32,000 nt of DNA from Microcystis aeruginosa NIES-843. GTDB taxonomy: Bacteria > Cyanobacteriota > Cyanobacteriia > Cyanobacteriales > Microcystaceae. Location of the stretch: contig NC_010296.1 of assembly GCF_000010625.1 (NCBI RefSeq), positions 2,850,001-2,882,000 of the forward strand, given 5' to 3'. Under the pieces are notes generated by a model. That model saw nothing but the letters and a program-made list of their open reading frames with translations. It ran no database searches and was not told the DNA's origin. Each line of letters starts with the position of its first letter. Within the stretch, counting starts at the first letter, position 1. The position numbers were made by a program, and so were the translations under genes. This document shows positions 1,478-30,537 of the stretch, piece by piece.

Positions 1478-1557
1478 GATCAGTGATCAGGAGATAGGAG
1501 ATAGGAGTCAGGAGATAGGAGTCAGGAGCCGGTCGTCAGGAGATAGGAGATAGGAGA
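1478..1557. repeat. Heptanucleotide tandem array (GGAGATA/GGAGTCA)n
   Basis: Direct reading of the sequence. Confidence 0.9.
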
Positions 1558-1572
1558 TTATTTTATTTATTC

Positions 1573-1728: not shown

Positions 1729-1788
1729 CCTGATTGAAACAAACAACCTGTCACCACGATCACTGATAATGTATGTTGAGTTACTGTC

Positions 1789-5899: not shown

Positions 5900-6107
5900 A
5901 AGGTGCGTTACGCGCTCGCTAACACACCCTACGGTTATAAACTCTCTATCTAAGGTGCGTTACGCGCTCGCTAACACACCCTACGGTTATAAACCCTCTA
6001 TCTAAGGTGCGTTACGCGCTCGCTAACACACCCTACGGTTATAAACCCTCTATCTAAGGTGCGTTACGCGCTCGCTAACACACCCTACGGTTATAAACTC
6101 TCTATCT
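5900..6107. repeat. 52-bp tandem repeat x4, each unit a 35-bp GTAGG-hairpin element plus a 17-bp copy of the purC 3' end
   Basis: Units lie at 5900, 5952, 6004 and 6056. The unit is AAGGTGCGTTACGCGCTCGCTAACACACCCTACGG+TTATAAAC[T/C]CTCTATCT. The last unit contains the real purC stop at 6091..6093. Confidence 0.95.
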
Positions 6108-6834
6108 GTTGTAAAACTCTTGCTTGTACTTGTTGATAGGCAGTTTCCACATCTCCTAAATCGCGACGAAAACGATCCTTATCGAGAATGCGCGCTTGGG
6201 CATCCTCTTGGGTTTTATCCCAGAGACGACAGGTATCGGGGCTAATTTCATCACCTAGATAAATTTTGCCCGTTTTATCAACTCCAAATTCTAACTTGAA
6301 ATCGACGAGAATAATCTGGCACTTATCGAAAAATTCTTGCAGATATTGATTGATTTGCAGGGCTAAATCTCGTAACTGATTGACTTGCTCCTCGCTGGCA
6401 ATATCGATCACTTTTATGCGATCGGGCGTTAACAAAGGATCGCCTAAAGCATCGTCCTTGAGATAAAATTCTACAAGAGGAAAAGGTAAAACTTTCCCCT
6501 CCTTTAATCCCGTTTGCTTGCACAAACTCCCGGCAGCGATATTTCTGACTACTACCTCCAAAGGAATAATTTTAATCGCCTTGACGCGCATTTCCCTAGA
6601 ACTAGGGCGATCGATATAATGGGTAGGTATTCCTAGGGATTCTAACCATTGAAATAGGGCAGTGGAGACAGTACAGTTAATTTCCCCTTTACCGACAATT
6701 TGCCCGCGTTTTTGGGCATTAAAAGCGGTGGCATCGTCTTTGTAATAAGTGAGGAGAATATCAGGATCATCGGTTTGATAGAGAATTTTGGCCTTACCTT
6801 CATAGAGTTTTTCCATAGTTATCATCCTCGGCAA
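6091..6834 (-). CDS. purC: Phosphoribosylaminoimidazole-succinocarboxamide (SAICAR) synthase
   Basis: 247 aa. It shows LYEGKAKILY, the DDATAFN region and family-typical sequence throughout. Confidence 0.93.
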   Translation of the reverse strand: MPRMITMEKLYEGKAKILYQTDDPDILLTYYKDDATAFNAQKRGQIVGKGEINCTVSTALFQWLESLGIPTHYIDRPSSREMRVKAIKIIPLEVVVRNIAAGSLCKQTGLKEGKVLPFPLVEFYLKDDALGDPLLTPDRIKVIDIASEEQVNQLRDLALQINQYLQEFFDKCQIILVDFKLEFGVDKTGKIYLGDEISPDTCRLWDKTQEDAQARILDKDRFRRDLGDVETAYQQVQARVLQQIESL

Positions 6835-7467: not shown

Positions 7468-8777
7468 TCGGGTGCATCTCAATTTTGTAGAAATATCTAT
7501 ACTTTAGACGTTCATAATCTGAGATTTATTAAACTTCTGAAATCGTAGAGTCAGCAAGGAATCCAGTTCTTTTTTATGTTTCAAATGGGCATCATTCAAA
7601 CATTCATAAATGGCTGAAGAAAAGTCAGAAAAGTTTTCATAATATTTACCATATAAACATTTCTTTTTGACCAATTTCCACAGCCTTTCAATTAAATTTA
7701 GATTAGGTGAATAAGACGGCAGATAGAGCAGTTCTATTGACAAAGAAAGAGCTAATTCTTCAACAATTTTACATTTTTGATAGCGGGCATTATCTAAGAC
7801 TAGAGTGATGGGAATCATTAGTCCTAAAGCAGCTATTTTTTCAAGGAGTTCACAGACTTGAGTTGCCGTAATATAAGTGTCATTCGTAACCAGAATAACT
7901 TCATGAGTTATTGCATTTAATGCTCCTAAAACATTGAAGCGTTTACGCCCGCTCGGTGACTTAACAAAAAGTCTCTCAAAACACCAAACAAAACCGAGAA
8001 ATGCTCCCATGACGAAGTGAGCGGCATCAACAAAAAAAACAGCCCTTTTTCCTTCTTTAGCCTCATTTAGTCTGGGTTCTAGCTTTTTTTCTTTGTAGTC
8101 CTCTTGTTCATCTGGGTCAGCTTTAGAAGGAAGAGAACCTACTTTTAAACATTTCATTCCCATTGATTTTAAAAATTTTCTCACTTGGGTAGGACTTCGT
8201 TTTATTCCCGTCAATTCTTCTCTCCTATATACAGCTTCATTTATTGTGGCTGGTGGATTTTTCTCGAAGTATTTTTTGAGGGTTTCTTTTTGAGACTCTA
8301 ATTCACTTTTAGGGCGATAGAAGTTGATTTCTTTTAATTTTTCTATTCCGCCCTCTTGATAATCTCGAAGATAGGTTAATAAGGTATTTGGCGAGATTCC
8401 TGCTAACTGACAAATTTTTTGGTGCGGTATCTTTTGGCTTTTTAACCAGAGAACTTCCATCTTCAGTTGAACCCGGGGATGGGGATGATGAAATCTTTCA
8501 TAATACAGTGAGTTCTTTTCTTCTTCCGTGAATTCTAGGTTAATCATGTTTTTAATGAGTGCTTTGCTTCTAATTATGACTCTTAAACTATATTATTGTC
8601 CTTGAGTAAAAAATGCAAGTTGTAGCCGTGCAAAGTATATATTACAGGGCGCACGCGGTGCGCCCCTACTATTGGCGCAATAATATTATTGTAGGGGCGA
8701 ATTGCATTCGCCCTCTTTGAATAACTGCTGCTGCTCACCATAAGTGAGAGAAAGTCACAAATATCAGATGCACCCGA
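7468..8777 (-). mobile_element. IS630-family insertion sequence (approximate ends)
   Basis: Imperfect terminal inverted repeats TCGGGTGCATCT occur at 7468..7479 and as the reverse complement at 8766..8777. They enclose the transposase gene and a 230-bp leader. No clear TA duplication was seen. Confidence 0.6.
7504..8547 (-). CDS. IS630-family DDE transposase
   Basis: 347 aa with an N-terminal HTH. The DDE-type motifs are FFVDAAHF, LVLDNARYQ and LPSYSPNLNLIERLW. Confidence 0.9.
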   Translation of the reverse strand: MINLEFTEEEKNSLYYERFHHPHPRVQLKMEVLWLKSQKIPHQKICQLAGISPNTLLTYLRDYQEGGIEKLKEINFYRPKSELESQKETLKKYFEKNPPATINEAVYRREELTGIKRSPTQVRKFLKSMGMKCLKVGSLPSKADPDEQEDYKEKKLEPRLNEAKEGKRAVFFVDAAHFVMGAFLGFVWCFERLFVKSPSGRKRFNVLGALNAITHEVILVTNDTYITATQVCELLEKIAALGLMIPITLVLDNARYQKCKIVEELALSLSIELLYLPSYSPNLNLIERLWKLVKKKCLYGKYYENFSDFSSAIYECLNDAHLKHKKELDSLLTLRFQKFNKSQIMNV

Positions 8778-8851: not shown

Positions 8852-10651
8852 TTAAAAATTACCGTGATTTTGGATGGCACTTTCTAATTTTGCCACCACT
8901 TCCTCGACGCTAATTACCCCTAAATCGCCCGTGGCACGGGTGCGAATACTTAAACTATTACTTTCCATTTCTTTTGCCCCCACCACTGCCATCACGGGGA
9001 TTTTTGCGGTTTCAGCATTGCGAATCATTTTACCCAAACGTTCGCCACTGGTATCGGTTTCGGCGCGAATTCCTAACAATTGCATTTTCGCTGTCACCTC
9101 TTTAGCGTAATCCAATTGAGTATCACTAACCGGTAATAATCGTATCTGGACAGGGGCTAACCAAAGAGGAAAATCCCCCGCGTATTCTTCGATTAAAATA
9201 CCGATTAAACGTTCCAAAGAACCAAAAGGTGCGCGATGAATCATCACCGGACGTTTACGATTACCATCTTCGGCAACATATTCTAGTTCAAAACGTTCGG
9301 GTAAATTATAATCTACCTGTACCGTTCCTAACTGCCATTCTCTTTCGAGGGCATCTTGGAAAATAAAGTCTAATTTTGGACCATAAAAAGCCGCTTCTCC
9401 GGGGGCTTCAAAATAATCCATCCCCAAAGTTTGCACCGCTTTTCTAATCGCTGATTGTGCCTTTTCCCAAGCTTCATCGGAACCGATATACTTATCCGAT
9501 TCGGGGTCACGAAAACTCAATCGCGCCTTAAAATTCTTTAATTGTAAACTCTTAAACACCGTCAAAATTAAATCAACAACGCTTAAAAATTCCTTGTCTA
9601 ATTGTTCGGGAGTGACAAACAAATGGGAATCATCGACGGTAAAACCGCGAACTCTAGTTAACCCCCCCAATTCTCCCGATTGTTCGTAACGATAAACTGT
9701 CCCGAATTCTGCCAGACGCATCGGCAATTCCCGATAGGATCTCAAATCACTTTTATAGATTTGAATATGAAAAGGACAGTTCATCGGTTTGAGGACAAAT
9801 CCTATTTCTTTACCAGCAGATTCCTCATCGTCTGCCATCATGGGAAACATATCTTCTTTGTACTTTTGCCAGTGACCGGAAATTTTAAACAAATCCACGC
9901 GAGCAATATGGGGAGTAACTACGGGTAAATAACCGCGTTTTAACTGTTCTTTTTTGAGAAAATCTTCTAACAAAGAACGAATTAAAGTTCCTTTGGGGGT
10001 CCATAAAGGCAACCCCGGCCCGACAGAATCAGAGAAAATAAATAAACCTAATTCTTTGCCTAATTTGCGATGGTCTCGTTTCAGTGCTTCTTCCTTGCGG
10101 CGCTTGTATTCGGCTAATTGTTGGGGATTTTCCCAAGCTGTGCCGTAAATGCGCTGTAATTGGGCTTTATTCTCATCCCCACGCCAATAAGCACCCGCTA
10201 CCGTCTCTAATTCGATCGCTTTTGGGTCTAGTTCGCTTGTATTATCTAGGTGCGGACCGGCGCACAAATCCCACCAAGCGTCACCAAGATGATAAAGGGT
10301 GATGGGTTCTTGAATTCCCGCCAGAATTTCCAGCTTATAGACCTCATTAATCGCTTTAATGCGCTTTTCCGCTTCTTCCCGAGAAACTTGCTCGCGAATC
10401 ACCGGCAGTTTTTTATTGATAATTTTGACCATCTCTTTTTTGATGTCCTTGAGATCCTTATCGGTAAAAGGTTCCGGCACATCAAAATCGTAGTAAAATC
10501 CGGTTTCAGTCCAAGGTCCGATAGTAACTTGGGCTTTTGGGAATAATTTTTGCACCGCCATGGCCATCACATGGGAGGTGGTGTGACGAATGCGCTTGAG
10601 GTGGTCGGATTCGCTGGTTTTCGGTAGTTTAATCGGGGCTTGGTTATCCAT
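8852..10651 (-). CDS. thrS: Threonyl-tRNA synthetase, paralog 1 (no upstream Fur/Zur-type box seen)
   Basis: 599 aa. Editing-domain motifs are HTTSH and WWDLCAGPH. Catalytic Zn-ligand contexts are MNCPFH, FTVDDSH and MIHRA. An anticodon-binding domain is present and there is no TGS domain. Confidence 0.95.
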   Translation of the reverse strand: MDNQAPIKLPKTSESDHLKRIRHTTSHVMAMAVQKLFPKAQVTIGPWTETGFYYDFDVPEPFTDKDLKDIKKEMVKIINKKLPVIREQVSREEAEKRIKAINEVYKLEILAGIQEPITLYHLGDAWWDLCAGPHLDNTSELDPKAIELETVAGAYWRGDENKAQLQRIYGTAWENPQQLAEYKRRKEEALKRDHRKLGKELGLFIFSDSVGPGLPLWTPKGTLIRSLLEDFLKKEQLKRGYLPVVTPHIARVDLFKISGHWQKYKEDMFPMMADDEESAGKEIGFVLKPMNCPFHIQIYKSDLRSYRELPMRLAEFGTVYRYEQSGELGGLTRVRGFTVDDSHLFVTPEQLDKEFLSVVDLILTVFKSLQLKNFKARLSFRDPESDKYIGSDEAWEKAQSAIRKAVQTLGMDYFEAPGEAAFYGPKLDFIFQDALEREWQLGTVQVDYNLPERFELEYVAEDGNRKRPVMIHRAPFGSLERLIGILIEEYAGDFPLWLAPVQIRLLPVSDTQLDYAKEVTAKMQLLGIRAETDTSGERLGKMIRNAETAKIPVMAVVGAKEMESNSLSIRTRATGDLGVISVEEVVAKLESAIQNHGNF

Positions 10652-10785: not shown

Positions 10786-11706
10786 ATGAAAAAACTAATT
10801 TTATCCTGTTTATTTTTGGGATTGGTTGCTTGTAATGATGCGGTTAATACCACCGATAACCAAAAACCTAAGGTAATCTCCACTAGCACAATTATCGCCG
10901 ATTTAACCGCACGAGTAGGCGGTGAAGAAATTGACCATCAAGACATTTTAAAACCAGGGGATGATCCCCACGTTTATGAACCAGTTCCCGCCGATAGTGT
11001 GGCTTTAGAAAAAGCCGATTTAATTCTCTATAACGGTTATAATCTCGAACCGGGGTTAATTAAAATGATCGATTCTACGGCAGTTAAAGCGAAAAAAGTG
11101 GCTGTGGGAGAAGCCATTACACCTTTACAACTGGAAAAAGAAGGGCAGAAAGTACCCGATCCCCATGTTTGGGGTTCGGCAAAAAATGGCATAATCATGG
11201 TGAAAAAAATCCGAGATCAATTGATTGAATTAAGTCCCGAAGATAAAGAGATTTTTACTGAAAATGCCGCCCAATTAATCAGGGAATTAGAAAATCTTGA
11301 TCGCTGGATTACTGCGGCTATTAAAACTATCCCCCCTTCCCAAAGGCAATTAGTCACCACTCATGACGCTTTTCAGTATTATGCTCATGCCTATGGTTTA
11401 AAAGTTGCAGGAACTTTAATTGGCATTAGTACCGAAGAACAACCTAGCGCCCAAACGGTGAAAAATTTAGCCGATGCTATTAAAAATCTCCAGGTTCCTG
11501 CTATCTTTGCCGAGACCACTATTAATCCCGCTTTAATTACCACTGTAGCCGAAGAAGCGGGGGTAAAATTAGCACCAAAACAATTATATTCTGATTCGAT
11601 CGGCGCGGTGGGTACTAGGGGGGATAGTTATGTAAAAATGCTCAGGGAAAATACTCGCTCGATCGTGGAATCTTTAGGGGGAAAAGTACCTCAAGAAGGT
11701 CAATAG
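10786..11706 (+). CDS. Metal ABC transporter substrate-binding lipoprotein (ZnuA/TroA/MntC cluster A-I family)
   Basis: 306 aa with lipobox LGLVAC. Ligand contexts are DPHVYEP, DPHVWGS, THDAFQYY and YSDSIG. It has no His-rich loop, and no cognate permease or ATPase gene is adjacent. Confidence 0.85.
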   Translation: MKKLILSCLFLGLVACNDAVNTTDNQKPKVISTSTIIADLTARVGGEEIDHQDILKPGDDPHVYEPVPADSVALEKADLILYNGYNLEPGLIKMIDSTAVKAKKVAVGEAITPLQLEKEGQKVPDPHVWGSAKNGIIMVKKIRDQLIELSPEDKEIFTENAAQLIRELENLDRWITAAIKTIPPSQRQLVTTHDAFQYYAHAYGLKVAGTLIGISTEEQPSAQTVKNLADAIKNLQVPAIFAETTINPALITTVAEEAGVKLAPKQLYSDSIGAVGTRGDSYVKMLRENTRSIVESLGGKVPQEGQ

Positions 11707-12008: not shown

Positions 12009-13112
12009 TTATTTCCCAAATCCTTTACCGCGATTGACAGCAGGTAAAATGAGACAACTGTTAATCTGTTCTTTTAGGGTTTCATGATCGAGATTTTGAC
12101 CGATAAGAACTAGCTGATTTTTGGGAGTACCTTTCCATTCGTCATCTTCGAGAGTAAAACGTTTGCCACTGAGGTGAAAAATATGACGTTTAGGACTTTC
12201 ATCAAACCAGAGAATACCCTTAGCGCGGAAAACGCTTTCCGGTAACTGATTATCGAGGAAATATTGGAACTTCCGAATCGAAAAAGGTTGGTCACTAGCA
12301 AAGGAAATAGAAGTAAATCCATCCACCTCTAAATGATTGGAATGGTCGTGATGATCATGATCGTGATCGTGGTGGTGATCATGGTCGTGATCATGATCGC
12401 AATGGTCGTGATCGTGGTCGTGGTGATCATGGTCGTGGTGTTCTTCTTCTGTGTCGAAATATTTATCCGATTCAAATAGTCCGACGCTGAGAATTAAGGG
12501 TAAAGGAACCTGACTTTTGCTAGTACGAAGAATTCTCGCTCCTTGCTTCATGTCCCGGATTCTTATTTCTAAAGAATCCACATCCGCTTCATCCACTAGA
12601 TCGGTTTTATTGAGAACAATAATATCACCGTAGGTGATTTGACTTAAGGCCGCTTGCGAGTTGAATAAATCGAGACTAAAATTGGCACAATCCACCATAG
12701 TGACAATGGAATCTAAACGGGTCATTTCCCGTAATTCTGTACCTAAAAAGGTTAAAGCTACCGGTAAAGGATCGGCTAATCCCGTGGTTTCTACGACTAA
12801 ATAATCGATTTTTTCGGGACGTTCGAGAATTTTATAAACTGCTTGAATTAAATCCTCGTTGATCGTGCAGCAAATACAGCCATTATTTAATTCTACCATG
12901 CTGTCATCACTACTGATAATCAGTTCATTATCGATACCGATTTCACCGAATTCATTGACAAGAACAGCAGTTTTTAATCCCTGTTGATTGCTGAGAATAT
13001 GATTGAGGAGAGTAGTCTTACCACTACCAAGAAACCCAGTAATAATTGTTACCGGTAGCCCTTTTTTTGGCACTGACATCGTGTTAATAGCTTGTGATTC
13101 GACGGTTTGCAT
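12009..13112 (-). CDS. COG0523-family metallochaperone GTPase (CobW/ZigA/YeiR-like) with His/Asp-rich tract
   Basis: 367 aa. Motifs are P-loop GFLGSGKTT, GCICC, ETTGLADP and LNKTD, plus a CobW_C-like C-terminus. A 36-residue tract, HHDHDHHDHDHDHCDHDHDHDHHHDHDHDHHDHSNH, lies at residues 225-260. Confidence 0.92.
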   Translation of the reverse strand: MQTVESQAINTMSVPKKGLPVTIITGFLGSGKTTLLNHILSNQQGLKTAVLVNEFGEIGIDNELIISSDDSMVELNNGCICCTINEDLIQAVYKILERPEKIDYLVVETTGLADPLPVALTFLGTELREMTRLDSIVTMVDCANFSLDLFNSQAALSQITYGDIIVLNKTDLVDEADVDSLEIRIRDMKQGARILRTSKSQVPLPLILSVGLFESDKYFDTEEEHHDHDHHDHDHDHCDHDHDHDHHHDHDHDHHDHSNHLEVDGFTSISFASDQPFSIRKFQYFLDNQLPESVFRAKGILWFDESPKRHIFHLSGKRFTLEDDEWKGTPKNQLVLIGQNLDHETLKEQINSCLILPAVNRGKGFGK

Positions 13113-13164
13113 AATGATTTGGGGGTGAGTATTCTGTCACTAAAAAGCGATTTTTCGGGATGAG

Positions 13165-13320
13165 ATAAGTAAGTGGTTTCAATTAAATTGAAGATAGATT
13201 TTGTCTTTGATCCCCCCTGCCCCCCTTGATAAGGGGGGTGCCGATAGGCGGGGGGATCCCCCCTTAATTCCCCCTTGATAAGGGGGGGGGATGTGACAAT
13301 TTTTAACATCCACTTACTTA
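13165..13320 (+). mobile_element. MITE copy C (same G/C-tract family)
   Basis: Termini are ATAAGTAAGTGG and CCACTTACTTA. The internal CCCCTTGATAAGGGGGGTGCCGATAGGCGGGGGGATCCCCCC matches copies A and B. Confidence 0.85.
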
Positions 13321-13367
13321 GCTAGTTTTTTTCGATCAAACAGTCTCCACTTGATCGCCGACTATTT

Positions 13368-13805
13368 TTATTGTAGATATTTTTGGACCACATCCCATCC
13401 TGTTAGGGTAACAAAAAGAAAACCCAGAAACAATAAAAGATTAGTGCCGATGTGGAGAGACCGCGCTAGAGGTGGACGAGTTGTAATGTTCAGGCCGCTA
13501 ATTGCCGAAACAAAAACCAGAAAAACCACCGATAAACCCGCTATCAGGTGGGAAGAGTGGCCTAAACTGCCATAATGACCGATTGTTCCCACTAATCCGA
13601 TTCCCAGCAGAATTAAGACCAAAGCAACCATGATCAGGCCGCTGAGGAGATGAAAGGATCTTAACCATTTCGGTCGAGATTGGCCCGCGAGTCGTCGATA
13701 ACCCATGTTTACCCCCGAAACCGCTAGTAAAAAATAGGCAAAGAGGGTAAATCCCATCGACCAAGCGGCAATTTTCCATAACCAGAGAAAGGAAGGGAGA
13801 TTCAT
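13368..13805 (-). CDS. Small four-TM membrane protein (possibly DUF4079-like)
   Basis: The ORF-track frame is used, with the start moved to Met23 (ATG 13805..13803). This avoids overlap with pepN and gives a hydrophobic N-terminus, MNLPSFLWLWKIAAW. The family call is from memory only. Confidence 0.6.
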   Translation of the reverse strand: MNLPSFLWLWKIAAWSMGFTLFAYFLLAVSGVNMGYRRLAGQSRPKWLRSFHLLSGLIMVALVLILLGIGLVGTIGHYGSLGHSSHLIAGLSVVFLVFVSAISGLNITTRPPLARSLHIGTNLLLFLGFLFVTLTGWDVVQKYLQ

Positions 13806-13893
13806 AGGGGTGGGATTATTATTAGCAAGGAAAGGGACGACCGATCGTGTTAATTTAAGTTTACCGGACAAAAATCAGCAAGTTAGGGCTAAT

Positions 13894-16446
13894 ATGTCTC
13901 ATCTCACCATCGACACAGAAAATAATCAGCGTCAACCCTTTGAGTTACCCGGGGCTAAACCCCATTATAACCCCGATCGACCCGGACAAGTTAATCATAT
14001 TTTTCTCGATTTAATTATTGATATTCCTCAACAAAGTTTTCAGGGCAGCTGTCAGATTACCCTCACCCCCATTCGTCAGGGAATTAGCAGTTTAACTCTG
14101 GACGCGGTGGATTTAAATATTAATTCTGTGTTCATTGAAGGTATCAGTCAACCCTTTGACTATGATCGTTCTCTTCTGACCATTCATCTGCTGCAACCCA
14201 CCACCGATAAACCGATTATCCTGACGATTAACTATCAGGTTAACCAACCACAACGGGGATTATATTTTATCGGCCCCGACGAATATTATCCCGATAAACC
14301 GATGCAAGTTTGGACCCAGGGAGAAGATGAAGATTCTCGCTTTTGGTTTCCCTGTTTTGATTACCCTGGCCAATTAGCCACTTCCGAAATTCGGGTTAAA
14401 ATTCCCCAACCCTATATCGCTATTTCTAACGGGGAATTAATCTCGGTGGAACCCGTTGGTGAGGACAGAATTTATCACTGGTCACAAAAGCAAATTCATC
14501 CCACCTATTTAATGACTCTTGCGGTGGGAGATTTTGCTGAATTATGCGACTCATGGAATGGTGTTCCTGTCACTTATTATGTGGAAAAAGGACGGGAAGA
14601 AGAGGGCCAAAGAAGTATGGGTAAAACTCCCCGCATGATCGAGTTTTTTAGCCAAAAGTTTGGTTATCCCTATCCCTATCCTAAATACGCACAAGTTTGT
14701 GTAGATGATTTTATTTTTGGTGGGATGGAAAATACTTCTACCACAATTTTAACCGATCGCTGTTTAATTGATCAAAGAGCCAGCATCGATCATACTTGGA
14801 CAGAAAGCTTAGTTGCCCATGAATTAGCTCATCAATGGTTCGGTGATTTAGTGGTGATTAAACACTGGTCTCACGCTTGGATTAAAGAGGGAATGGCCTC
14901 CTATTCTGAGGTTTTATGGACAGAATCGGAATACGGAAAAGCTGCTGGTAGTTATTATTTATTAGGGGAAGCAAGAAGTTATTTAGAAGAAGATACTTCC
15001 CGCTATCGTCGTCCGATTGTTACTCATGTTTATCGAGAAGCGATCGAACTTTATGATCGTCATCTCTACGAAAAAGGCGCTTGTGTTTATCACATGATCC
15101 GCTCTATTTTAGGGGAAGATTTATTCGGAAAAGCGATTCAGACTTTTGTGCGAGATAATGCCCATAAAACCGTGGAAACTGTGGACTTATTACGGGCGAT
15201 CGAAAAAGCGACCGGGTACAATTTATTATTCCTCTTTGATCAGTACGTTTATCGCGGTGGTCATCCCGATTATAAGGTGGCCTACAGTTGGGACAATCAG
15301 AATAATTTAGCCCAATTAACTGTCACCCAAACCCAGGACGAAAAAGAACTATTCGACTTGAAAATTCCCGTCGCTTTTGCCTATCTCAACTCTGAGGATA
15401 TTACCTACAATCTGCGGATTCACCAAAAAGAACAAACTTTCTATTTTCCCCTAGCACAAAAGCCCGATTTTGTCAAGTTCGATCGGGGTAATAATTTCCT
15501 CAAAACCGTCACTCTTGAGTATCCCATCGGTGAATTAAAAGCGCAATTACAACAGGATACCGATCCAATTTCCCGTATCTATGCAGCCATAGCCATTGCT
15601 AAAAAAGGCGGTTTAGAAGCGATCGAAGCTTTAGGGACATCCCTAGAAAATGAGCCTTTTTGGGGGGTGCGTGTGGAGGTGGCCAAACAGTTAGCAACTC
15701 TTGGTTTAGATCAGGCAGTTACTGCTTTAATTAAAGGTTTAAACGATGAAAAAGCACAAGTACGTCGGGCAGTTGTCGAGGGATTAAGTGAAATTAAAAC
15801 CTTAGATAGTTATAATGCGCTTAAATCCCTATTAGAAACTGGAGATGCTAGTTATTATGTGGAAGCGGCCGCGGCGCGAGGATTAGGCTCCATGGCCGTG
15901 GGACAATTGCAAAATAAAGAAGGGGAAATTATTGACCTGCTCAATCATGTTTTACAGTCAAGAAAGGGGTGGAATGAGGTAGTAAGAGCGGGCGCAATTG
16001 GCGGTTTAAGCCAGTTAAAAACCTCCCCGGCGGCTTTGGAGTCAATTTTGACCTACACAGCTTTAGGCACGCCTCAACCCCTGAGATTAGGGGCTATTCG
16101 GGCCCTGGGAGCGATTTCTTCGGGACAAAGCACGGATAAATTAACCGTAATTTTGGAACGTTTAGAAACCATTGCCAAGGAAACTTTTTTCTTGACGCAA
16201 GTGGCAGTGTGTAACGCTTTAGGACAGATAGAAAATGCCAAAGCTATCGTTATTTTACAAGCTTTGAGCGATCGAACTCCCGATGGTCGTGTCCGTCGTG
16301 TAGCCGAGGAAGCAGTACAAAAAGTCCAGAAAAAATTGGGTTCCGAGAAAGCAATTCAGGAAATTCGCGAGGAATTAGAAAAAATGAAACAGGAAAATCA
16401 GGAACTTAAAAGTCGTTTGACCAAATTAGAGGCGAAAAATGGTTAG
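13894..16446 (+). CDS. pepN: Aminopeptidase N (M1 family) with C-terminal HEAT-repeat region
   Basis: It has the GGMENTS exopeptidase motif and HELAHQWFGD...WIKEGMA (HEXXH-18-E). The C-terminal region carries repeated HEAT-like helices and a coiled-coil tail. ATG 13894 is preferred over the GTG at 13810. Confidence 0.9.
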   Translation: MSHLTIDTENNQRQPFELPGAKPHYNPDRPGQVNHIFLDLIIDIPQQSFQGSCQITLTPIRQGISSLTLDAVDLNINSVFIEGISQPFDYDRSLLTIHLLQPTTDKPIILTINYQVNQPQRGLYFIGPDEYYPDKPMQVWTQGEDEDSRFWFPCFDYPGQLATSEIRVKIPQPYIAISNGELISVEPVGEDRIYHWSQKQIHPTYLMTLAVGDFAELCDSWNGVPVTYYVEKGREEEGQRSMGKTPRMIEFFSQKFGYPYPYPKYAQVCVDDFIFGGMENTSTTILTDRCLIDQRASIDHTWTESLVAHELAHQWFGDLVVIKHWSHAWIKEGMASYSEVLWTESEYGKAAGSYYLLGEARSYLEEDTSRYRRPIVTHVYREAIELYDRHLYEKGACVYHMIRSILGEDLFGKAIQTFVRDNAHKTVETVDLLRAIEKATGYNLLFLFDQYVYRGGHPDYKVAYSWDNQNNLAQLTVTQTQDEKELFDLKIPVAFAYLNSEDITYNLRIHQKEQTFYFPLAQKPDFVKFDRGNNFLKTVTLEYPIGELKAQLQQDTDPISRIYAAIAIAKKGGLEAIEALGTSLENEPFWGVRVEVAKQLATLGLDQAVTALIKGLNDEKAQVRRAVVEGLSEIKTLDSYNALKSLLETGDASYYVEAAAARGLGSMAVGQLQNKEGEIIDLLNHVLQSRKGWNEVVRAGAIGGLSQLKTSPAALESILTYTALGTPQPLRLGAIRALGAISSGQSTDKLTVILERLETIAKETFFLTQVAVCNALGQIENAKAIVILQALSDRTPDGRVRRVAEEAVQKVQKKLGSEKAIQEIREELEKMKQENQELKSRLTKLEAKNG

Positions 16447-16583
16447 TTAACCTGAGTTATCAGTTATCAGTCAATATAAACACCGAATTTTGAACAATTA
16501 TGCAACAATTTATTCAACAGTTAAAAATCGATTTATCCTTGACAGTGATCTAGCAGTTTCATCATTTACTTTCCTAAATATCC

Positions 16584-17195
16584 TTAGCTAATCATCGCCA
16601 ATAAACCTTGATAAAAAATCTGAAAACTAGGAGAACAATTATGAGCAGGAGTCATAAATTGAGAAATTTCTCGGGCTGCTTTCACTTTTTCTAAACCTCC
16701 TCGATGATACCCAGCTTTTTGAAGTATCTTTTCTAAGTTTTCCCAAGTTCCCCCCGTAATTTCATCGGGTTTTCTGTATTTTGCTTGCTGTCCCACATTA
16801 GTAGAAACTTTGGGATAGGCTGAGACTATAGCCTGAATATCACCAAAAAACCAAGCTTCTAGTTCTTCTATAGCAATTCTATTTAACACCTGAAATGTTT
16901 TTTTATCTTCACTAATCGTTTTGGTGATCAGTCCTGTTTGTTGGGCAATATTTTCTAACTTTTCTTTGAGCATTTGACAATCTTCATTGTCTCTATCTAC
17001 AAGAATAATGATTCGATAATCATCGGGTATCCAGCATTGATAGCCTTTTAATCGCTCCGGTAGTTTTTTGATTAAATCGGATTTACCTCGAAAGGCATGA
17101 ATTTTATAGGTGACATTCTCAAATAATATTTTAGGTAAAATTTGATTTAAACATTCTTGGGTAGAAAATTCTTCAACTAAAAATTCAAGATGCAC
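16584..17195 (-). CDS. TOPRIM-like small protein (DUF4276-type), partner of the upstream ATPase
   Basis: 203 aa with a GTG start preceded by AAGGAGGG. It has an N-terminal strand plus acidic pair LVEEFS, then IILVDRDNED (DxD) and IEELEAWFFGD. The family name is from memory and is unverified. Confidence 0.6.
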   Translation of the reverse strand: MHLEFLVEEFSTQECLNQILPKILFENVTYKIHAFRGKSDLIKKLPERLKGYQCWIPDDYRIIILVDRDNEDCQMLKEKLENIAQQTGLITKTISEDKKTFQVLNRIAIEELEAWFFGDIQAIVSAYPKVSTNVGQQAKYRKPDEITGGTWENLEKILQKAGYHRGGLEKVKAAREISQFMTPAHNCSPSFQIFYQGLLAMIS

Positions 17196-17219
17196 TTTTT
17201 CCCTCCTTTGCTATTAAAC

Positions 17220-18407
17220 TTAAATGCTAGGATTACCCACATCAAAATAGTCCTCCATCCATAATTGACCCAACAAAGCACCATTTTGAATAAATTCCTT
17301 AACTCCTTGCATTGCTGAAGTACGTTTAGCTTGAGTAAAACCATTTTCATCTCGATAAAGTACCCAAACCTCCTCTGGTTTCAAACCATCTACAAAAAAG
17401 GGAGAATGAGTTGTTACCATTAATTGTGTACTTGCGGTCGCTGCCCGACATTCTTCTGCTAATTCAGGTAATAAACGGGGATGAAGATGATTTTCTGGTT
17501 CTTCTATTCCCAGTAATTGCGGAGGGCTTGGATCATATAATATAGTTAAATAAGCCAACATTTTTAAAGTGCCATCGGAGGCAAATTTGGCAAGAATTGG
17601 CTCTTGAAAAGGTGCGTCTTTAATTTGAAGTAAAAGCTGTCCATTCGGCATAATAGATGCTTCTACTTTTTCTAATCTGGGAATTCGACGAGAAAGGGTT
17701 TGTAAAATAGATTCTAATCGTTGAGGATGATCTTCTTTTAAATATTGAATAACATTAGGTAAATTGTCACCAGTTGGCGATAATCTTTCTTGCGCTCCTG
17801 CTTCTGGTTGAGTGCGAGTATTATCTGCGGTTAAGTAGGAAAGATACCAACTTGTGATAAAACGACGCAAAGCACTAACCCGGGGATGTTTGGCCAATTG
17901 TCCGAGGGTACTAACAGCTAAAAATTCCGGGGAGTCTAATCGTTCAGAAATTCGTTTATCTTTTGGTTTGGGATTTTCTCCACTAACCACTATTCCTCCC
18001 CCTTCTTTAAAGTCTAAAAAGCGATAAGGTTTGCCCTTCGCTCCTTGTCTCCACTGTAACCATTCTTCGGCAACATAAGGGCGATTGTTAGCTTCATTAA
18101 TAGCCAAATGATAGGTAATTAAAGGTGATGCCAATTTTTCTCGATATTTTAATTCGATAATGATGTAACCTTCTTGTCCTCTGGTTCTTAATTCTTTAAA
18201 TCTTCCCCGTCTGTCCCAAGCTTTTTTTAAACCAACAGTAAAACATTCAGAGAGGAAAGCAAAGACATCAAATATGGTAGATTTTCCGCTCCCATTAGGA
18301 CCGAGAAAAACGGTTAAAGGAGTAATGCTTTTTAATTCTAAGTCCTGTAAAGCTCGGTAATTTTGCACGCGCAGATTTTCGATTCGAGGTATAGAGTTTT
18401 TAGACAT
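17220..18407 (-). CDS. ABC-type AAA ATPase (AAA_15/AAA_21, OLD/AriA/PtuA-like)
   Basis: 395 aa. Walker A is GPNGSGKST, Walker B and D-loop are [13 protein letters not shown], and the H-loop is VTTHSP. A long insert lies between the N and C lobes. Confidence 0.8.
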
Positions 18408-18714
18408 TGATTGTTGCTCTCTGCTGCTTTTAGCTCGTCTTGTCCCAGATTAGCTGTTAATTTCGCCAGTTCCCCGAAAAAACTGGTCAATTTTTAGTAA
18501 TCTCTACTTATAATACCAAATCCAATCGGTGATCAGATACACCCATTTCTCTTTCCTGAGTTTCCCCATCATCTGCTTTGTCAAGACCAGAATCGGCCTT
18601 GACTTGGCTTTAAGGTTTATTTTATAGATGCCTTTGATGTTAACAGTAGGGAACTATGGCATAATCCAGTTATACTTCATCTTTATGAAAAACTCTTTAA
18701 TAAACCTAGAGTTT

Positions 18715-19755
18715 TTAAATTGAGTAATCGATAACTTTCTCACTTTTATTGTCAAAATCAGTGAGTAAAGTCGCTTTTCTCGGTTTTAAATGTACCGTTT
18801 GTTCTGGTTGTAACTGTAATTGCTTGTATTCCTCACGATTGAGATAAGCCACCACCATTTCCCCATCGGCTAACATTAATTCTACTTGTATTTCCCAGCC
18901 TAAATGAATAACTCTTTTTACCACTGCCCAACTATTCAAACCATCTTGTTCGGGCATAATTTCCAGGTCGTGGGGACGGATAAAAACGGTGGAATTATGA
19001 CCCTGATGATGTCCATTTCCTAATCCTGCTAAACTGGGTAAGATATTCACTTCCCCAATAAATTGCATCACAAAAGCTGTGGCTGGATGATCGTAAATTT
19101 CGGCGGGAGAACCCACCTGTTCAATTTTACCATGATTCATCACGACAATCGTATCGGCTACTTCCATTGCTTCCTCTTGATCGTGGGTAACAAAAACACT
19201 GGTAACGTGAACTTCTTTATGTAAATTTCTCAGCCATACCCTTAATTCTTTTCTGACTTTTGCATCTAAAGCTCCAAAGGGTTCATCTAATAATAATACA
19301 TTCGGTTGAATAGCTAAAGCGCGGGCTAAAGCTACTCGCTGCCGTTGTCCTCCCGATAATTGGGCGGGATAGCGATCGCCTAATCCTTGTAATTGAATTA
19401 ATTCTAATAATTCCTCAACTTTTTTCTTAATTACTGGGGATTTTTGCTGGCGAATTTCTAGACCAAAAGCAATATTTTGACGGACAGTTAAATGTTTAAA
19501 TAGGGCATAATGTTGAAAAACAAAGCCGATATTTCTCCGTCTAGGATCCACATGGGTGGTATCTTGTCCGTTAATGATAATCGCGCCACTGTCGGGAGTT
19601 TCTAATCCGGCAATTGAACGTAATAAGGTGGATTTTCCCGATCCCGATGGTCCGAGGAGGGCGACTAATTTACCTTCAGGAATGGTTAAACTGATATTAT
19701 CTAAAGCCTGAAAATTGCCGAAACGTTTAGAAACTTGCTGGATGGTAATACTCAT
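18715..19755 (-). CDS. cysA: Sulfate/thiosulfate ABC transporter ATP-binding protein
   Basis: 346 aa with [17 protein letters not shown] and LLLDEPF. It has a C-terminal TOBE-like domain and lies last in the sbpA-cysTW operon. Confidence 0.92.
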
Positions 19756-19835
19756 ATTTTTAGGTTTTTTGTAGAACGTAGGTTGGGTTGAAGCATGAAA
19801 CCCAACGCCCGCTCATATTTTTAGGTTTTTTGTAG
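19751..19835. repeat. 37-bp GTAGG-hairpin element flanked by a 24-bp direct duplication of the cysW-cysA junction
   Basis: CTCATATTTTTAGGTTTTTTGTAG occurs at 19751..19774 and 19812..19835. The core at 19775..19811 is the reverse complement of 4063..4099. Confidence 0.95.
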
Positions 19836-25650: not shown

Positions 25651-27507
25651 ATGGTCAATCAAATTAAGTCCCCCCGAGCAGAAAGCCCCGTTATCGAAGA
25701 AGATTCGCAAAAAATCGTAAAAATACGCCATACTTGCGCCCATATCTTAGCGATGGCTGTACAAACTCTCTTTCCTGAAACCAAAGTCGCTATTGGTCCC
25801 TGGACAGAAACGGGATTCTACTACGATTTCGATCGCCCAACACCCTTTACCCCCGAAGATTTGGAGAAAATAGCGGCAGAAATGGGGCGAATTATCGGGA
25901 AAAACCTGCCAATTATCCGAGAAGTGCTGGAAAGAAGCGAAATTACCGCAGAAATCGAGCGCCTTAATCAACCCTACAAACGGTCAATTTTAGAGAGAAT
26001 TCCCCCAGATGAAACCATTACCCGTTATTTTATCGGTAGTCCGGACGCAGGACGGAGCGATCGAGAACCCTCGTTAATTGATGGTGCTGTTTCTCCCCCG
26101 GAAGAATTTTGGTGGGATCTGTGCGCGGGACCGCATCTCAACTCGACGGGGGAAATTAACCCCGATGCTTTCGCCTTGGAGAGTGTAGCGGGTGCTTATT
26201 GGCAAGGAGATGAAAAACAGCCGCAATTACAGCGAATTTACGGCACAGCTTGGCAAACCCCCGCAGAATTACAAAATTATCTCCAACAAAAAGAAGAAGC
26301 GCAGCGACGAGATCATCGCAAATTGGGACAACAATTAAAATTATTTAGCATCCAAGAAGATGCAGGTGGAGGCTTAGTTTTTTGGCATCCCCGGGGTGCA
26401 ACAATGCGTTATTTAATCGAAGATTATTGGCGCCAAGCTCATTTAGAAGCGGGTTATCAATTTCTTTATACTCCCCATCTAGCTAATTTAGATTTGTGGA
26501 AAACTTCCGGACATTGGGACTTTTATCGCGACAATATGTTTGAGGCGATCGAGTTAGAACAGCAAAGCTATCAAATTAAGCCGATGAATTGTCCTTTTCA
26601 TGTTTTAACCTATCAAAATGACCTGCATTCCTATCGAGAATTTCCCCTCAGATGGGCAGAATTAGGCACAGTTTATCGTTACGAGCGATCGGGGGTTTTA
26701 CACGGATTAATGCGGGTGCGAGGATTTACTCAAGATGATGCTCATATTTTCTGTTTACCAGAACAAATTGCCGCAGAGATTCTAGGAGTTTTGAACTTAA
26801 CCGAGAAAATTCTCTCCGATTTTGGCTTTACTAATTATCAGATAAATTTATCGACTCGCCCCAGTAAATCCGTGGGTAGTGATAGTGTTTGGGAATTGGC
26901 AACGGCGGCTCTAATTGAGGCCTTAAATGCTAAAAAGTGGGATTATATTGAGGATCAGGGAGGTGGGGCTTTTTATGGTCCGAAAATTGATATAAAAATT
27001 CAAGATGCGATCGGTAGAATGTGGCAATGTTCCACGATTCAGGTCGATTTTAACTTGCCAGAACGCTTTGATATGCAATATGTCGCTAGGGATGGTACTC
27101 GGGAAAGACCGATTATGATTCATCGAGCTATTTTTGGCTCTTTGGAAAGATTTTTTGGCATTTTAATCGAGAATTATGCGGGAGATTTTCCTCTCTGGTT
27201 AGCACCTATTCAAGTCCGTTTATTACCCGTTAGTGATGAACAGCAGCATTATGCTTTAGGGGTGGCAATGCAGTTAAAACAAGCTGGTTATCGAGTGGAA
27301 ATCGATAAAACTGGTGAGCGTTTAGGTAAACAAATTCGTACAGGAGAACTAGAAAAAATCCCTGTCTTAGCTGTGATTGGAAAACGAGAAGTTAGCAGTA
27401 AAACTCTAAGTGTTCGCACTCGACAAGGGGGAGATTTAGGTTCGATGACGCTGGTAGATTTATTAGGAAAAATGCAAACAGCGATCCTATCTAAAACTAA
27501 TCTCTGA
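25651..27507 (+). CDS. thrS: Threonyl-tRNA synthetase, paralog 2 (operator-controlled)
   Basis: 618 aa. It has HTCAH, WWDLCAGPH, MNCPFH, FTQDDAH and MIHRA. It is collinear with paralog 1 except for a ~22-aa insertion before WWDLC. Confidence 0.95.
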   Translation: MVNQIKSPRAESPVIEEDSQKIVKIRHTCAHILAMAVQTLFPETKVAIGPWTETGFYYDFDRPTPFTPEDLEKIAAEMGRIIGKNLPIIREVLERSEITAEIERLNQPYKRSILERIPPDETITRYFIGSPDAGRSDREPSLIDGAVSPPEEFWWDLCAGPHLNSTGEINPDAFALESVAGAYWQGDEKQPQLQRIYGTAWQTPAELQNYLQQKEEAQRRDHRKLGQQLKLFSIQEDAGGGLVFWHPRGATMRYLIEDYWRQAHLEAGYQFLYTPHLANLDLWKTSGHWDFYRDNMFEAIELEQQSYQIKPMNCPFHVLTYQNDLHSYREFPLRWAELGTVYRYERSGVLHGLMRVRGFTQDDAHIFCLPEQIAAEILGVLNLTEKILSDFGFTNYQINLSTRPSKSVGSDSVWELATAALIEALNAKKWDYIEDQGGGAFYGPKIDIKIQDAIGRMWQCSTIQVDFNLPERFDMQYVARDGTRERPIMIHRAIFGSLERFFGILIENYAGDFPLWLAPIQVRLLPVSDEQQHYALGVAMQLKQAGYRVEIDKTGERLGKQIRTGELEKIPVLAVIGKREVSSKTLSVRTRQGGDLGSMTLVDLLGKMQTAILSKTNL

Positions 27508-27620
27508 AACTTTTGTATAAACCAGCAATAGTGGAGATCGATCCCTTTAGGGCGAATTTAACAGGGTTGAGAAAAGCCTATTTTCTGTCAATTAATTAAC
27601 TTACAAGTGGGTTAGCTGCC

Positions 27621-28652
27621 ATGAGTTCTTTGATAATTCCTCTCTCCGATTCTCTCCCTTGCTTGCCTAAATCGGGAATGCCTGTGACGATCATTACTGG
27701 TTTTTTAGGGAGTGGAAAAACCACCTTACTAAATCATATTCTTGACAATAAAGAAGGGTTAAAAGTTGCCGTATTAGTCAATGAGTTTGGGGATATTAAT
27801 ATTGATTCTCAATTGCTTGTTTCCATCGATGAAGATATGGTAGAATTGAGTAATGGCTGTATTTGTTGTACAATTAATGATAGTTTAATTGAGACAGTCT
27901 ATCAGGTCTTAGAAAAAGAAATACCCGTGGACTATCTAATCATTGAAACCACAGGATTAGCCGATCCTTTGCCAATTATCCTCACTTTCCTGGCCACGGA
28001 ATTAAAATATCTGACTCGCTTAGATTCTATTATTACCCTCGTGGATTCTGAAACCTTTACGGCGGATCATTTTGATAGTAACATTGCCCTTAGTCAAATT
28101 CGTTATGGTGACGTGGTAATTCTCAATAAAATAGATCGAGTCAGTGGCAAAAAATTAGATGATTTAGAAAAGTTTATTCGTCGAGAAAAAGAGGGTATAA
28201 GACTCCTAAAAAGTAGTTATGGTCAGGTTCCTTTGGGTTTATTGTTAGATTTAGGTTTAACTAAAGAAGAATTGTATAAAAACCAATTTAGAGACTTTCA
28301 AAAAAATCGCCAAAGCTCCAGTGATAATCAATCTCCTGAAGACTTTAATTTTGTCTCTTTTGTTAGCAATAAACCATTTAATCTAGATAAATTTGAACCT
28401 TTTCTCACGGAAAAAATGCCGATGAATGTTTTTCGAGCAAAAGGGATTCTCTGGTTTCAACAAAGCGATTTAAAACATATTTTTCAATTGAGCGGTCTCC
28501 GTTACGATCTGCAAGCGGTAGAATGGGATACATCTCCTCAGAATCAGTTAGTTTTTATCGGCAGAAATTTAAATAAAGAGGAAATCTTGACACAACTAAA
28601 CGAATGCTTGGCTAGTTCTCAAAAAATTAAAAAGGACAAACTAAGTAGGTAG
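27621..28652 (+). CDS. COG0523-family metallochaperone GTPase (no His-rich tract)
   Basis: 343 aa with GFLGSGKTT, GCICC, ETTGLADP and LNKID, plus a CobW_C-like C-terminus. It lies 113 nt after thrS paralog 2 with no terminator seen. The last codons and the stop lie in a MITE terminus. Confidence 0.92.
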   Translation: MSSLIIPLSDSLPCLPKSGMPVTIITGFLGSGKTTLLNHILDNKEGLKVAVLVNEFGDINIDSQLLVSIDEDMVELSNGCICCTINDSLIETVYQVLEKEIPVDYLIIETTGLADPLPIILTFLATELKYLTRLDSIITLVDSETFTADHFDSNIALSQIRYGDVVILNKIDRVSGKKLDDLEKFIRREKEGIRLLKSSYGQVPLGLLLDLGLTKEELYKNQFRDFQKNRQSSSDNQSPEDFNFVSFVSNKPFNLDKFEPFLTEKMPMNVFRAKGILWFQQSDLKHIFQLSGLRYDLQAVEWDTSPQNQLVFIGRNLNKEEILTQLNECLASSQKIKKDKLSR

Positions 28653-28739
28653 GTGTTAAAAGTTTTCAGACACCCCCCCCTTATTAAGGGGGGATTAAGG
28701 GGGGGACTAAGGGGGGATCGGCACCCCCCTTATCAAGGG
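28642..28739 (-). mobile_element. MITE copy D, left portion (interrupted by an IS)
   Basis: The terminus TAAGTAGGTAGGTGTTAAAAG and G/C-tract modules are present. The copy is broken after CCCCTTATCAAGGG. Confidence 0.8.
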
Positions 28740-30157: not shown

Positions 30158-30227
30158 CCCTTATCAAGGGGGGCAGGGGGATCGAACCTAAAATCCATTT
30201 TTAATTTAATTATAACCAGCTACTTAT
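30158..30227 (-). mobile_element. MITE copy D, right portion
   Basis: The sequence continues CCCTTATCAAGGGGGGCAGGGGGATCG... through TAATTTAATTATAACCAGCTACTTAT. It matches the outer end of copy B. Confidence 0.8.
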
Positions 30228-30537
30228 GAATAATTTATGGATAAAAACTTTAAAATTTAACGAACCCTCGATCCCATGGTTTTACATCTCTTTGTTCTCC
30301 AAGTTCATTATCGCAAACCCTTGCACTTTACGGAAGCGGCGATCGATTAAGGGAACAATTAAAAACGAGGGGAATTACCTTAGTTGATTTACCCGATGGA
30401 CAAAGCCAATGGTATCCTAGAGAAAAGAGCCATAACCATGATTAATATCCCAAGAAACCGCCAATTTTTCCCAAAATAACCTGGCTAAGTCTAGAGGATT
30501 GGTTAAGGAAGATTACTTGCCCCAATCTGACTTATGC

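Follow-up and report, generated by a model that had tools for sequence, protein, structure and literature searches.

A HEC-01-type ATPase and DUF4276 gene pair at a strain-variable site between cysA and pepN in Microcystis aeruginosa NIES-843

The chromosome of the bloom-forming cyanobacterium Microcystis aeruginosa NIES-843 carries a two-gene cassette between the sulfate transport gene cysA and a pepN-like aminopeptidase gene. One gene encodes an ATP-binding cassette (ABC) ATPase and the other a small protein of the DUF4276 family. The cassette lies within a stretch of 32,000 nucleotides (nt) of contig NC_010296.1 (assembly GCF_000010625.1, positions 2,850,001 to 2,882,000 of the forward strand), which is referred to here as the window and whose own numbering is used throughout. 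As judged from the sequences of its two proteins, the cassette is a stand-alone, ordinary member of HEC-01, a candidate anti-phage system that has already been catalogued. Both genes are intact and are arranged as an operon with the following parts, given in amino acids (aa) and open reading frames (ORFs):

17220-18407, minus strand: HEC-01A-type ABC ATPase of 395 aa, an ORF with an ATG start.
17196-17219, minus strand: intergenic spacer of 24 nt at the operon junction, read from the sequence.
16584-17195, minus strand: HEC-01B-type DUF4276 protein of 203 aa, a predicted TOPRIM-like metal-dependent nuclease, an ORF with a GTG start.

The assignment to HEC-01 is based on a search of PADLOC-DB v2 with both cassette proteins, each of which matches an HEC-01 model end to end. 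The ATPase matches HEC-01A (PDLC04182) at 1.6e-175 with 582 bits, residues 7-392 being aligned to profile positions 2-404 of 406, and the small protein matches HEC-01B (PDLC04202) at 1.1e-99 with 331 bits, residues 1-202 being aligned to positions 1-201 of 204. The two genes are also adjacent and co-oriented as in HEC-01, with a gap of 24 nt on one strand. HEC-01, or Hma-embedded candidate 01, was described as an ABC ATPase with a TOPRIM-like protein (Payne et al., bioRxiv 10.1101/2024.01.29.577857). The cassette has the same two families in the same order, the ABC ATPase being followed by the TOPRIM-like protein, but it stands alone among housekeeping genes without a surrounding Hma system, which is the context of discovery and not a requirement for detection. 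A preliminary description of this DNA had stated that the cassette matched no named system, a statement that the HEC-01 matches overturn. Its further remark that no characterised system contains such a partner does not hold either: HEC-01 has been published, Mad3 and Mad4 are needed for MADS defence, and DUF4276 occurs in NsnC of Menshen. Two further models in the database also match the pair, PDLC04144, labelled HEC-01B, matching the ATPase at 1.3e-117 and PDLC04143, labelled HEC-01A, matching the DUF4276 protein at 1e-34; it appears that A and B have been interchanged in the labels of one HEC-01 subtype of this database.

The motifs of the ATPase are complete and stand in the order Walker A (residues 36-44), ABC signature SDGT (277-280), Walker B with D-loop (298-310), and H-loop TTHSP (332-336), with a long insert separating the two lobes. 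Pfam matches to AAA_21 (1.2e-29, profile positions 1-304 of 304) and AAA_15 (1.7e-20), together with the motif positions, bear out the ABC type that had been proposed for it from the Walker, D-loop, and H-loop motifs. By sequence, the ATPase is a member of the AAA_15/AAA_21 ABC clade used by OLD, GajA, PtuA, and AriA. Within PADLOC, models of related systems score far below the 582 bits of HEC-01A, AriA reaching about 100 bits and PtuA about 68 bits; AbiLi, mad3 (2.7e-23), and NsnB (4.5e-17) are likewise far lower. A search of Protein Data Bank (PDB) sequences gave weak, motif-level similarity to OLD (6p74) and PtuA. An AlphaFold2 (AF2) model of the ATPase was set aside and is used for no claim, its mean pLDDT score (predicted local distance difference test) being 43.9 on a shallow alignment of homologues at least 80% identical. 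Published models of HEC-01A show an ABC fold (Payne et al., bioRxiv 10.1101/2024.01.29.577857).

The small protein matches Pfam DUF4276 (PF14103) at 1.6e-31, with 110.5 bits against a cutoff of 30.2 and over profile positions 1-191 of 192, in agreement with the family to which it had been tentatively referred. It carries the stretches LVEEFS, ILVDRDNED, and IEELEAWFFGD. Conservation was followed in an alignment of 43 cyanobacterial homologues and, separately, in one of 77 diverse sequences (35-52% identity), chosen to represent a family that forms about 1,400 clusters at the 50% identity level; the two alignments show a matching pattern. All of the diverse representatives (77/77) match Pfam DUF4276. 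Among them, E113, W115, and D144 do not vary, and conservation reaches at least 90% for each of E8, D67, D69, and E111. The AF2 model of the small protein (pLDDT 90, predicted template modelling score, pTM, 0.87) contains strands at residues 2-7, 29-34, 60-67, and 103-108 with helices between them (b1-a-b2-a-b3-a-b4). The acidic residues are placed in this model after strand 1 (E8/E9), after strand 3 (D67-x-D69), and after strand 4 (E110/E111/E113). A Glu at the end of strand 1 with DxD after strand 3 is the TOPRIM arrangement, and the E111/E113 cluster after strand 4 is extra to it.

A Foldseek comparison of this model with the PDB gave 2p62_A (PH0156, an uncharacterised protein) as the best match, with a probability of 1.0 and a template modelling (TM) score of 0.51. 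The same entry, 2P62, has been reported as the best PDB match of a lactococcal PARIS AriB and annotated as 'TOPRIM domain of OLD nucleases'. The link that this model provides from DUF4276 to PARIS AriB via PH0156 (2P62) is indirect. Published work places DUF4276 among the members of TOPRIM and describes Mad4 as a DUF4276 homologue (Menshen paper, 2025, PMC12065111), and the metal-binding site of HEC-01B has been found to match that of Burkholderia OLD (Payne et al., bioRxiv 10.1101/2024.01.29.577857). On the basis of the fold order, the motif placement, the indirect PH0156 link, and two published structural analyses, a predicted TOPRIM-like fold is accepted for the small protein. The preliminary description had identified a Glu...DxD TOPRIM pattern; the placement of the motifs in the AF2 model supports it, whereas a direct profile or Foldseek link to OLD or AriB was not obtained. 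A profile search of the small protein against PDB sequences returned nothing relevant, and Foldseek against BFVD gave no meaningful match. Pfam DUF3226 is weakly matched by 3 of the 77 DUF4276 members (best 6e-4), one of which is encoded at 5992-6627 of locus L099; these matches and the Foldseek match to PH0156 (2p62) suggest that DUF4276 and DUF3226 are related families.

The junction of the two genes is compact. The ATPase stop codon occupies 17220-17222, and a Shine-Dalgarno sequence, AAGGAGGG, lies at 17201-17208, 5 nt ahead of the DUF4276 GTG. In the 43-homologue cyanobacterial alignment, the DUF4276 proteins begin at the same residue as this GTG start (MH[LIF]EFLVEE). A non-coding leader of 307 bp (18408-18714) runs from the cysA stop to the ATPase start. 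The two-gene layout, the 24-nt gap, the GTG start behind a strong AAGGAGGG, and the 307-bp leader had all been read correctly at the outset, and an impression that the cassette was richer in AT than its neighbours proved right: the GC content of the cassette block is 0.367 vs 0.411 for the window, and GC at third codon positions (GC3) is 0.24-0.245 in both cassette genes vs 0.28-0.39 in eight neighbours. In a scan of 16300-18800, predicted promoters did not rise above shuffled sequence and no terminators were found, and Rfam and tRNA scans of the window found nothing.

The pair moves between chromosomal sites as a 2-kb unit. The unit and the sequences that delimit it are as follows:

16477-18504, minus strand: portable unit of 2,028 bp, made up of 96-97 nt upstream, both genes, and 107 nt downstream, with boundaries from blastn.
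18408-18503, minus strand: 96-nt upstream region moving with the unit, up to the boundary of the shared DNA.
16477-16493, plus strand: the terminal 17 nt of the unit (TAAACACCGAATTTTGA), found as a remnant beside pepN in loci L012 and L014.
18505-18714, minus strand: locus-specific, strain-variable part of the leader outside the unit, with indels or replacements in other strains.

At least ten other assemblies encode an identical ATPase of 395 aa, there between secA and ispF. Blastn shows that these secA-ispF copies share 16477-18503/4 with the window, a length of 2,027-2,028 bp, at 99.3-99.75% identity and with abrupt edges. The unit contains the two cassette genes only, with no transposase or integrase within it. 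Neither terminal inverted repeats nor target-site duplications were convincing at its ends, the best end match being 8/12 by eye and a repeat search remaining at chance level. On the upstream side, 18505-18668 is present only in loci of the cysA context, and loci L105 and L106 retain just 18408-18459 of the upstream region. The 96-nt region 18408-18503 contains an inverted repeat, CCAGTT-N9-AACTGG, at 18466-18486 upstream of the ATPase, and presumably holds the putative promoter and 5' untranslated region of the unit itself.

The 17-nt terminus occurs once per locus, and the secA-ispF copies of the unit likewise end in it on their 3' side. Its identification as a native pepN flank or an att-like site was rejected because the homology of five loci to the window ends before it, at 16459-16471, in L013, L015, L016, and L117, which are without the pair here, and in L111, which has it. 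Since these five other Microcystis loci lose homology at that point, the best reading of the 17-mer, from the sequence, is that it is the terminus of the unit itself and persists in L012 and L014 as a scar. A further locus, L115 (HE973763.1), had been considered an empty cysA-pepN site; this was withdrawn, as the supposed filler at 13453-13552 is a scaffold gap of 100 Ns, with edges at 16476/16477 and about 18472 of the window. Such a gap would arise if the assembly had broken at a repeated unit, and it suggests at least two copies of the unit in that strain.

The place of the cassette between pepN and cysA, as given in the preliminary description, agrees with the Pfam content of the two flanking genes:

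13810-16446, plus strand: pepN-like aminopeptidase gene (Peptidase_M1/HEAT by Pfam), flanking the cassette.
18715-19755, minus strand: CysA gene (ABC_tran/TOBE by Pfam), flanking the cassette on the other side.

The cysA side is a sulfate transport operon, cysA-cysW-cysT-NIL-sbp, and exact-match look-ups of its NIL-domain protein led to ten distinct Microcystis arrangements. The pair lies between cysA and pepN in L111, L112 (and three similar places), and L113. In L117 the gap is filled by type I restriction-modification (R-M) genes, HsdM and HsdS being contiguous with cysA and, on the other side, pepN with an HsdR-like helicase, and this cargo is interrupted midway by two scaffold gaps. The gap of L014 holds 424 bp of unrelated filler and only the terminal 17 nt of the unit, and L012 retains the 17 nt with a type I HsdM about 3 kb away. 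In five arrangements, cysA adjoins unrelated genes. The cysA-pepN site is a strain-variable slot that alternates between the pair and type I R-M, so that the presence or absence comparison proposed for the pepN-cysA junction returns, depending on the strain, the pair, type I R-M, or a 17-nt remnant. Among 80 cyanobacterial pepN loci from species representatives, none has the pair within 10 kb of pepN (0/80). In a Microcystis metagenome-assembled genome, L016, the same pepN breakpoint adjoins a sulfur-starvation encapsulin locus (12946-15891), in which a CysK-like PALP enzyme, a CysE-like hexapeptide transferase, and an encapsulin shell protein of the SrpI type come after pepN.

Divergent alleles of the pair, differing by 4% in DNA, also occur at the cysA-pepN locus (L102-L106 and L111-L113). 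The rate of synonymous substitution (dS) for these alleles is 0.07-0.12 in the pair and equals that of cysA/pepN, 0.06-0.10, which indicates that the pair has been resident at cysA-pepN since these Microcystis lineages split. The secA-ispF copy, which is 99.3-99.75% identical to the window, arose by recent relocation or duplication of an allele like that of the window.

The two proteins evolve at different rates. Between window-type and divergent Microcystis alleles, the ratio of nonsynonymous to synonymous substitution (dN/dS) is 0.40-0.45 for the ATPase, 0.13 for the DUF4276 protein, and 0.10-0.15 for PepN and CysA, with similar dS. The ATPase changes in amino-acid sequence at three to four times the rate of the nuclease or the flanks, mostly in the insert. 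Of the 42 common ATPase polymorphisms in 85 Microcystis alleles, 20 lie in residues 76-175, the stretch inserted between the helix of Walker A and the second lobe, a figure that is descriptive rather than a formal test. Across cyanobacterial orders, identity amounts to 80-88% for the ATPase and 61-85% for the DUF4276 protein. A conserved ATPase scaffold with fast-changing patches, together with a conserved nuclease, would be expected of a sensor-effector immune pair, and the ATPase pattern resembles that described for the AriA pores (PARIS paper, 2024). The contrast between a fast insert and a constrained nuclease makes residues 76-175 of the ATPase a candidate trigger-sensing surface.

Both proteins have Microcystis-labelled homologues at 93-98% identity, the flanking pepN is 96-97% identical to that of five Microcystis species representatives, and over 9.7 kb the window matches a complete Microcystis chromosome (CP191409.1) at 98.6% identity. 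The order of ATPase and then DUF4276 is kept in all loci examined, with a gap of 0-32 nt or an overlap. The neighbours are pyrG and SnoaL in Gloeothece PCC 7424, PIN and a transposase in Scytonema, an nSTAND protein in Sodalinema, and ftsH and Uma2 in Richelia. A universally conserved syntenic core, an outcome that the preliminary description had named as adverse to its proposal, is not what these loci show: the neighbours differ in every genus examined, and the pair is lost at this site in a related strain. A second AAA_15/AAA_21 ATPase, of 367 aa, is encoded in Gloeothece citriformis PCC 7424 (L092, 12260-14752) at a distance of about 3 kb from the pair, accompanied by a 161-aa ORF without a Pfam match and a D12-class methyltransferase; this locus may be another ATPase-based defence candidate.

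In the secA-ispF context (L002-L006, about 200-3830), a protein of 1,059-1,074 aa with N6_Mtase and Type_ISP_C matches is encoded upstream of secA, about 4 kb upstream of the pair, and constitutes a Type ISP-like R-M enzyme. Directly downstream of ispF in the same loci lie HicA/UPF0150 or DUF2281/PIN toxin-antitoxin pairs. Distant relatives of the pair, at 32-51% identity, occur on the Synechocystis plasmid pSYSM among toxin-antitoxin, HNH, and dnd-associated methylase genes, on a Meiothermus plasmid between hsdS and hsdR inside a type I R-M operon, and on an IMG/VR contig, where the flanking ORFs of 522, 447, and 1,085 aa fit by size alone the order hsdM-hsdS-pair-hsdR. The idea of a phage- or satellite-borne system, like many PARIS loci, was rejected on the basis of one distant match in a phage collection of 50,697 records and one locus in IMG/VR, which was scanned with two exact peptide patterns of the cyanobacterial clade that detect close relatives only.

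A PARIS-like or split-OLD logic had been proposed for the cassette and is sound, given an ATPase with a separate TOPRIM-like partner; MADS3-4 is listed with PARIS, OLD, and AbiL among the systems of ABC ATPase and TOPRIM (PARIS paper, 2024). PARIS shares with the cassette the split into an ATPase and a TOPRIM-like nuclease, the two-gene operon with the ATPase first, the AAA_15/21 clade of the ATPase, and 2P62_A as the best PDB match, which is common to the DUF4276 model and the published AriB. The partner differs, being DUF4276 in the cassette and DUF4435 in PARIS AriB, and neither Pfam nor PADLOC gave a DUF4435 or AriB match for the cassette at E-values up to 1. OLD (P2 Old, class 1) and GajA likewise couple an AAA_15/21 ABC ATPase to a metal-dependent nuclease domain of the Glu...DxD type, but fuse in a single chain what the cassette encodes in two separate genes. 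The Pfam family for the OLD TOPRIM domain (PF20469) is matched by P2 Old at 1.2e-17 and not by the small protein. Among the window ORFs of at least 110 aa there is neither a UvrD-type helicase corresponding to GajB of Gabija nor an HNH gene corresponding to PtuB of Septu, and the exclusion of these two systems in the preliminary description stands.

MADS resembles the cassette in its Mad3-Mad4 pair, an AAA_15/21 ATPase with DUF4276, and differs in having eight genes where the cassette is a two-gene unit. Deletion of mad3 or mad4 weakens MADS defence in Pseudomonas aeruginosa, and the detection model makes MAD6-8 mandatory (MADS preprint). The window contains no mad6-8 and no MADS methylase, and the ATPase scores 117 bits against the NCBIfam MAD3 equivalog (NF047739), below its cutoff of 420. 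In Menshen, DUF4276 is the predicted nuclease effector domain of NsnC variants, beside the ABC ATPase NsnB (PMC12065111). Menshen, however, comprises three genes (NsnA, NsnB, and NsnC) with DUF4276 as the C-terminal domain of NsnC, and no NsnA or NsnC architecture is present in the window.

By analogy with these systems, the cassette is probably a defence pair, in which the ATPase would sense phage and control a DUF4276 nuclease that aborts infection. An oligomer of the ATPase would act as sensor and keeper of the nuclease, as in PARIS AriA-AriB, OLD, and Gabija. A phage-derived trigger or a change in nucleotide state would lead, through ATP binding or hydrolysis, to release or activation of the DUF4276 protein. 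Its acidic cluster of E8, D67-x-D69, and E111-E113 would then bind Mg2+ and cut DNA or tRNA, so that phage replication would be blocked or the growth of the infected cell arrested. In a later cold-seep metagenome study, E. coli B that carried an HEC-01 representative was protected against one or more of the phages T4, T5, and T7.

Several observations weigh against this reading. For the nuclease, the top 50 Foldseek matches of the model in the PDB contain no OLD or AriB chain. An hhalign comparison with P2 Old aligned the segment FLVEE...GK twice to Old residues 395-436/480, which fall within the Pfam TOPRIM domain of Old (389-455), at a probability of just 0.6-1.7%, and a lenient scan of the 77 DUF4276 members gave no match to the Pfam families TOPRIM, DUF4435, and RloB. 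For the pair as a whole, no other defence genes were found among the window ORFs of at least 110 aa, all of which are housekeeping or transposase genes. PepN is 66-75% identical between Microcystis and other cyanobacteria, so the ATPase, at 80-88%, is more conserved than this flanking enzyme. On the experimental side, an HEC-01 representative in E. coli protected against none of the phages tested by Payne et al. (10.1101/2024.01.29.577857), the cold-seep study reports neither fold reduction nor mutants for HEC-01, and none of the published HEC-01 experiments comes from this cyanobacterial clade.

The pair could instead be a selfish, addiction-type (toxin-antitoxin-like) module, in which a DUF4276 toxin would be restrained by the ATPase and loss of the pair would be costly, with no real antiviral benefit. 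This seems unlikely, although a 2,028-bp unit found at two unrelated loci at 99.3-99.75% identity without a mobility gene would suit such a module, as would the scaffold gap at the unit ends in L115, with at least two suggested copies in one strain. The Pfam text for AAA_21 ('putative AbiEii toxin, type IV TA system'), the published assay without defence (Payne et al.), and the toxin-antitoxin neighbours HicA, PIN, and RelE/HigA in some genomes point the same way. The equality of pair and flank dS at cysA-pepN, however, speaks for long, stable vertical residence and not for rapid turnover, and the faster evolution of the ATPase insert suits a sensor of changing targets better than an antitoxin. 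Relatives embedded in R-M and MADS, and required for MADS defence, also argue for immunity, as does the one positive phage assay (cold-seep study). A bolder proposal would make the unit a new kind of autonomous mobile element, copied in a homing-like manner by its own ATPase and nuclease, with defence and self-mobility served by the same proteins. It is suggested by the fixed ends (16477 and 18503/4), the lack of a transposase, integrase, terminal inverted repeats, or target duplication, the two unrelated sites at 99.3-99.75% identity, and the probable two copies in one strain, and we give it hardly any credence.

RecF/Rad50-type ABC ATPases with TOPRIM proteins such as RecR or RNase M5 offer a housekeeping parallel. 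The pair might thus be a domesticated cyanobacterial factor, for example an ATP-dependent DNA-repair or RNA-processing nuclease, and its ATPase identity across cyanobacterial orders, above that of PepN, would be in keeping with such a role. So would an identity that declines roughly with taxonomic distance, the housekeeping genes that flank the pair in most cyanobacteria, the match of its dS to that of the flanks, and the strong purifying selection on DUF4276. A housekeeping function is nevertheless quite unlikely: synteny is not conserved across genera, the pair is lost here in L012 and L014 and replaced by R-M genes in L117, and its GC3 is markedly below that of the neighbours. The nearest non-cyanobacterial relatives lie on plasmids beside or inside defence genes (in Meiothermus, a type I operon), the raised dN/dS of the ATPase is concentrated in the insert, and NCBIfam contains a housekeeping equivalog for neither cassette protein. 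Very unlikely, in turn, is an accessory role to an R-M system encoded elsewhere, in which the pair would be active only with its partner, like Mad3-Mad4 in MADS or RloB-type proteins in type I systems. For this role speak the distant relatives between hsdS and hsdR, the fitting ORF sizes on the IMG/VR contig, the Type ISP-like methylase-nuclease gene about 4 kb from the secA-context copies, the accessory place of Mad3 and Mad4 in MADS, and the failure of HEC-01 alone to defend an E. coli lacking R-M systems. Yet the 13 kb of the window to either side of the pair are free of methylase and restriction genes, the pair stands alone in five cyanobacterial contexts, and the 2-kb unit moves without a partner.

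The rest of the window is of housekeeping character, with genes for APS kinase, CoaE, PurC, two threonyl-tRNA synthetases (ThrRS), ZnuA, two CobW proteins, and RNase III. The longest pepN ORF, from a GTG at 13810, overlaps the start of a divergent DUF4079 gene (13368-13871) by 62 nt, and alignments with non-Microcystis PepN homologues begin only at about residue 25-30; the true start of pepN probably lies further downstream than 13810. Between cysW and cysA, a repeat of about 40-47 nt (19773-19819) is 96-100% identical to sequences elsewhere in Microcystis loci, namely L113 7048-7090 and L117 6739-6777 and 19235-19281, and one copy lies exactly at the pepN-side edge of the R-M cargo of L117. 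It may be a small dispersed repeat or a miniature inverted-repeat transposable element (MITE) involved in rearrangements. Two transposase genes, one IS630-like (DDE_3 and HTH_23; 7504-8547, minus strand) and one IS4-like (DDE_Tnp_1; 28800-29921, plus strand), lie about 8 and 10 kb from the cassette, neither being adjacent to it, and the IS4-like gene falls within an AT-rich stretch at about 27500-30500 with a GC content of 0.34-0.36. The two ThrRS paralogues, of 599 and 618 aa, are encoded at 8852-10651 (minus strand) and 25651-27507 (plus strand). Each adjoins a CobW-family GTPase and one also ZnuA, these further genes lying at 10786-11706 (plus strand), 12009-13112 (minus strand), and 27621-28652 (plus strand), and the first CobW has a long His/Asp-rich stretch (HDHDHHDHDHDH...). 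The ThrRS, CobW, and ZnuA genes look like a zinc-sparing duplicate set.

Any PADLOC run would tag this pair as HEC-01, and the find itself is ordinary. It is of value as a well-characterised natural case from a family in which neither mechanism nor activity is settled. Many closely related alleles are available in a bloom-forming cyanobacterium, and the compact unit of 2 kb, whose ends are known, lends itself to cloning together with its native upstream region. The pair would provide a practical start for testing HEC-01 as a real anti-phage system in its native phylum and for finding what the DUF4276 nuclease cuts.

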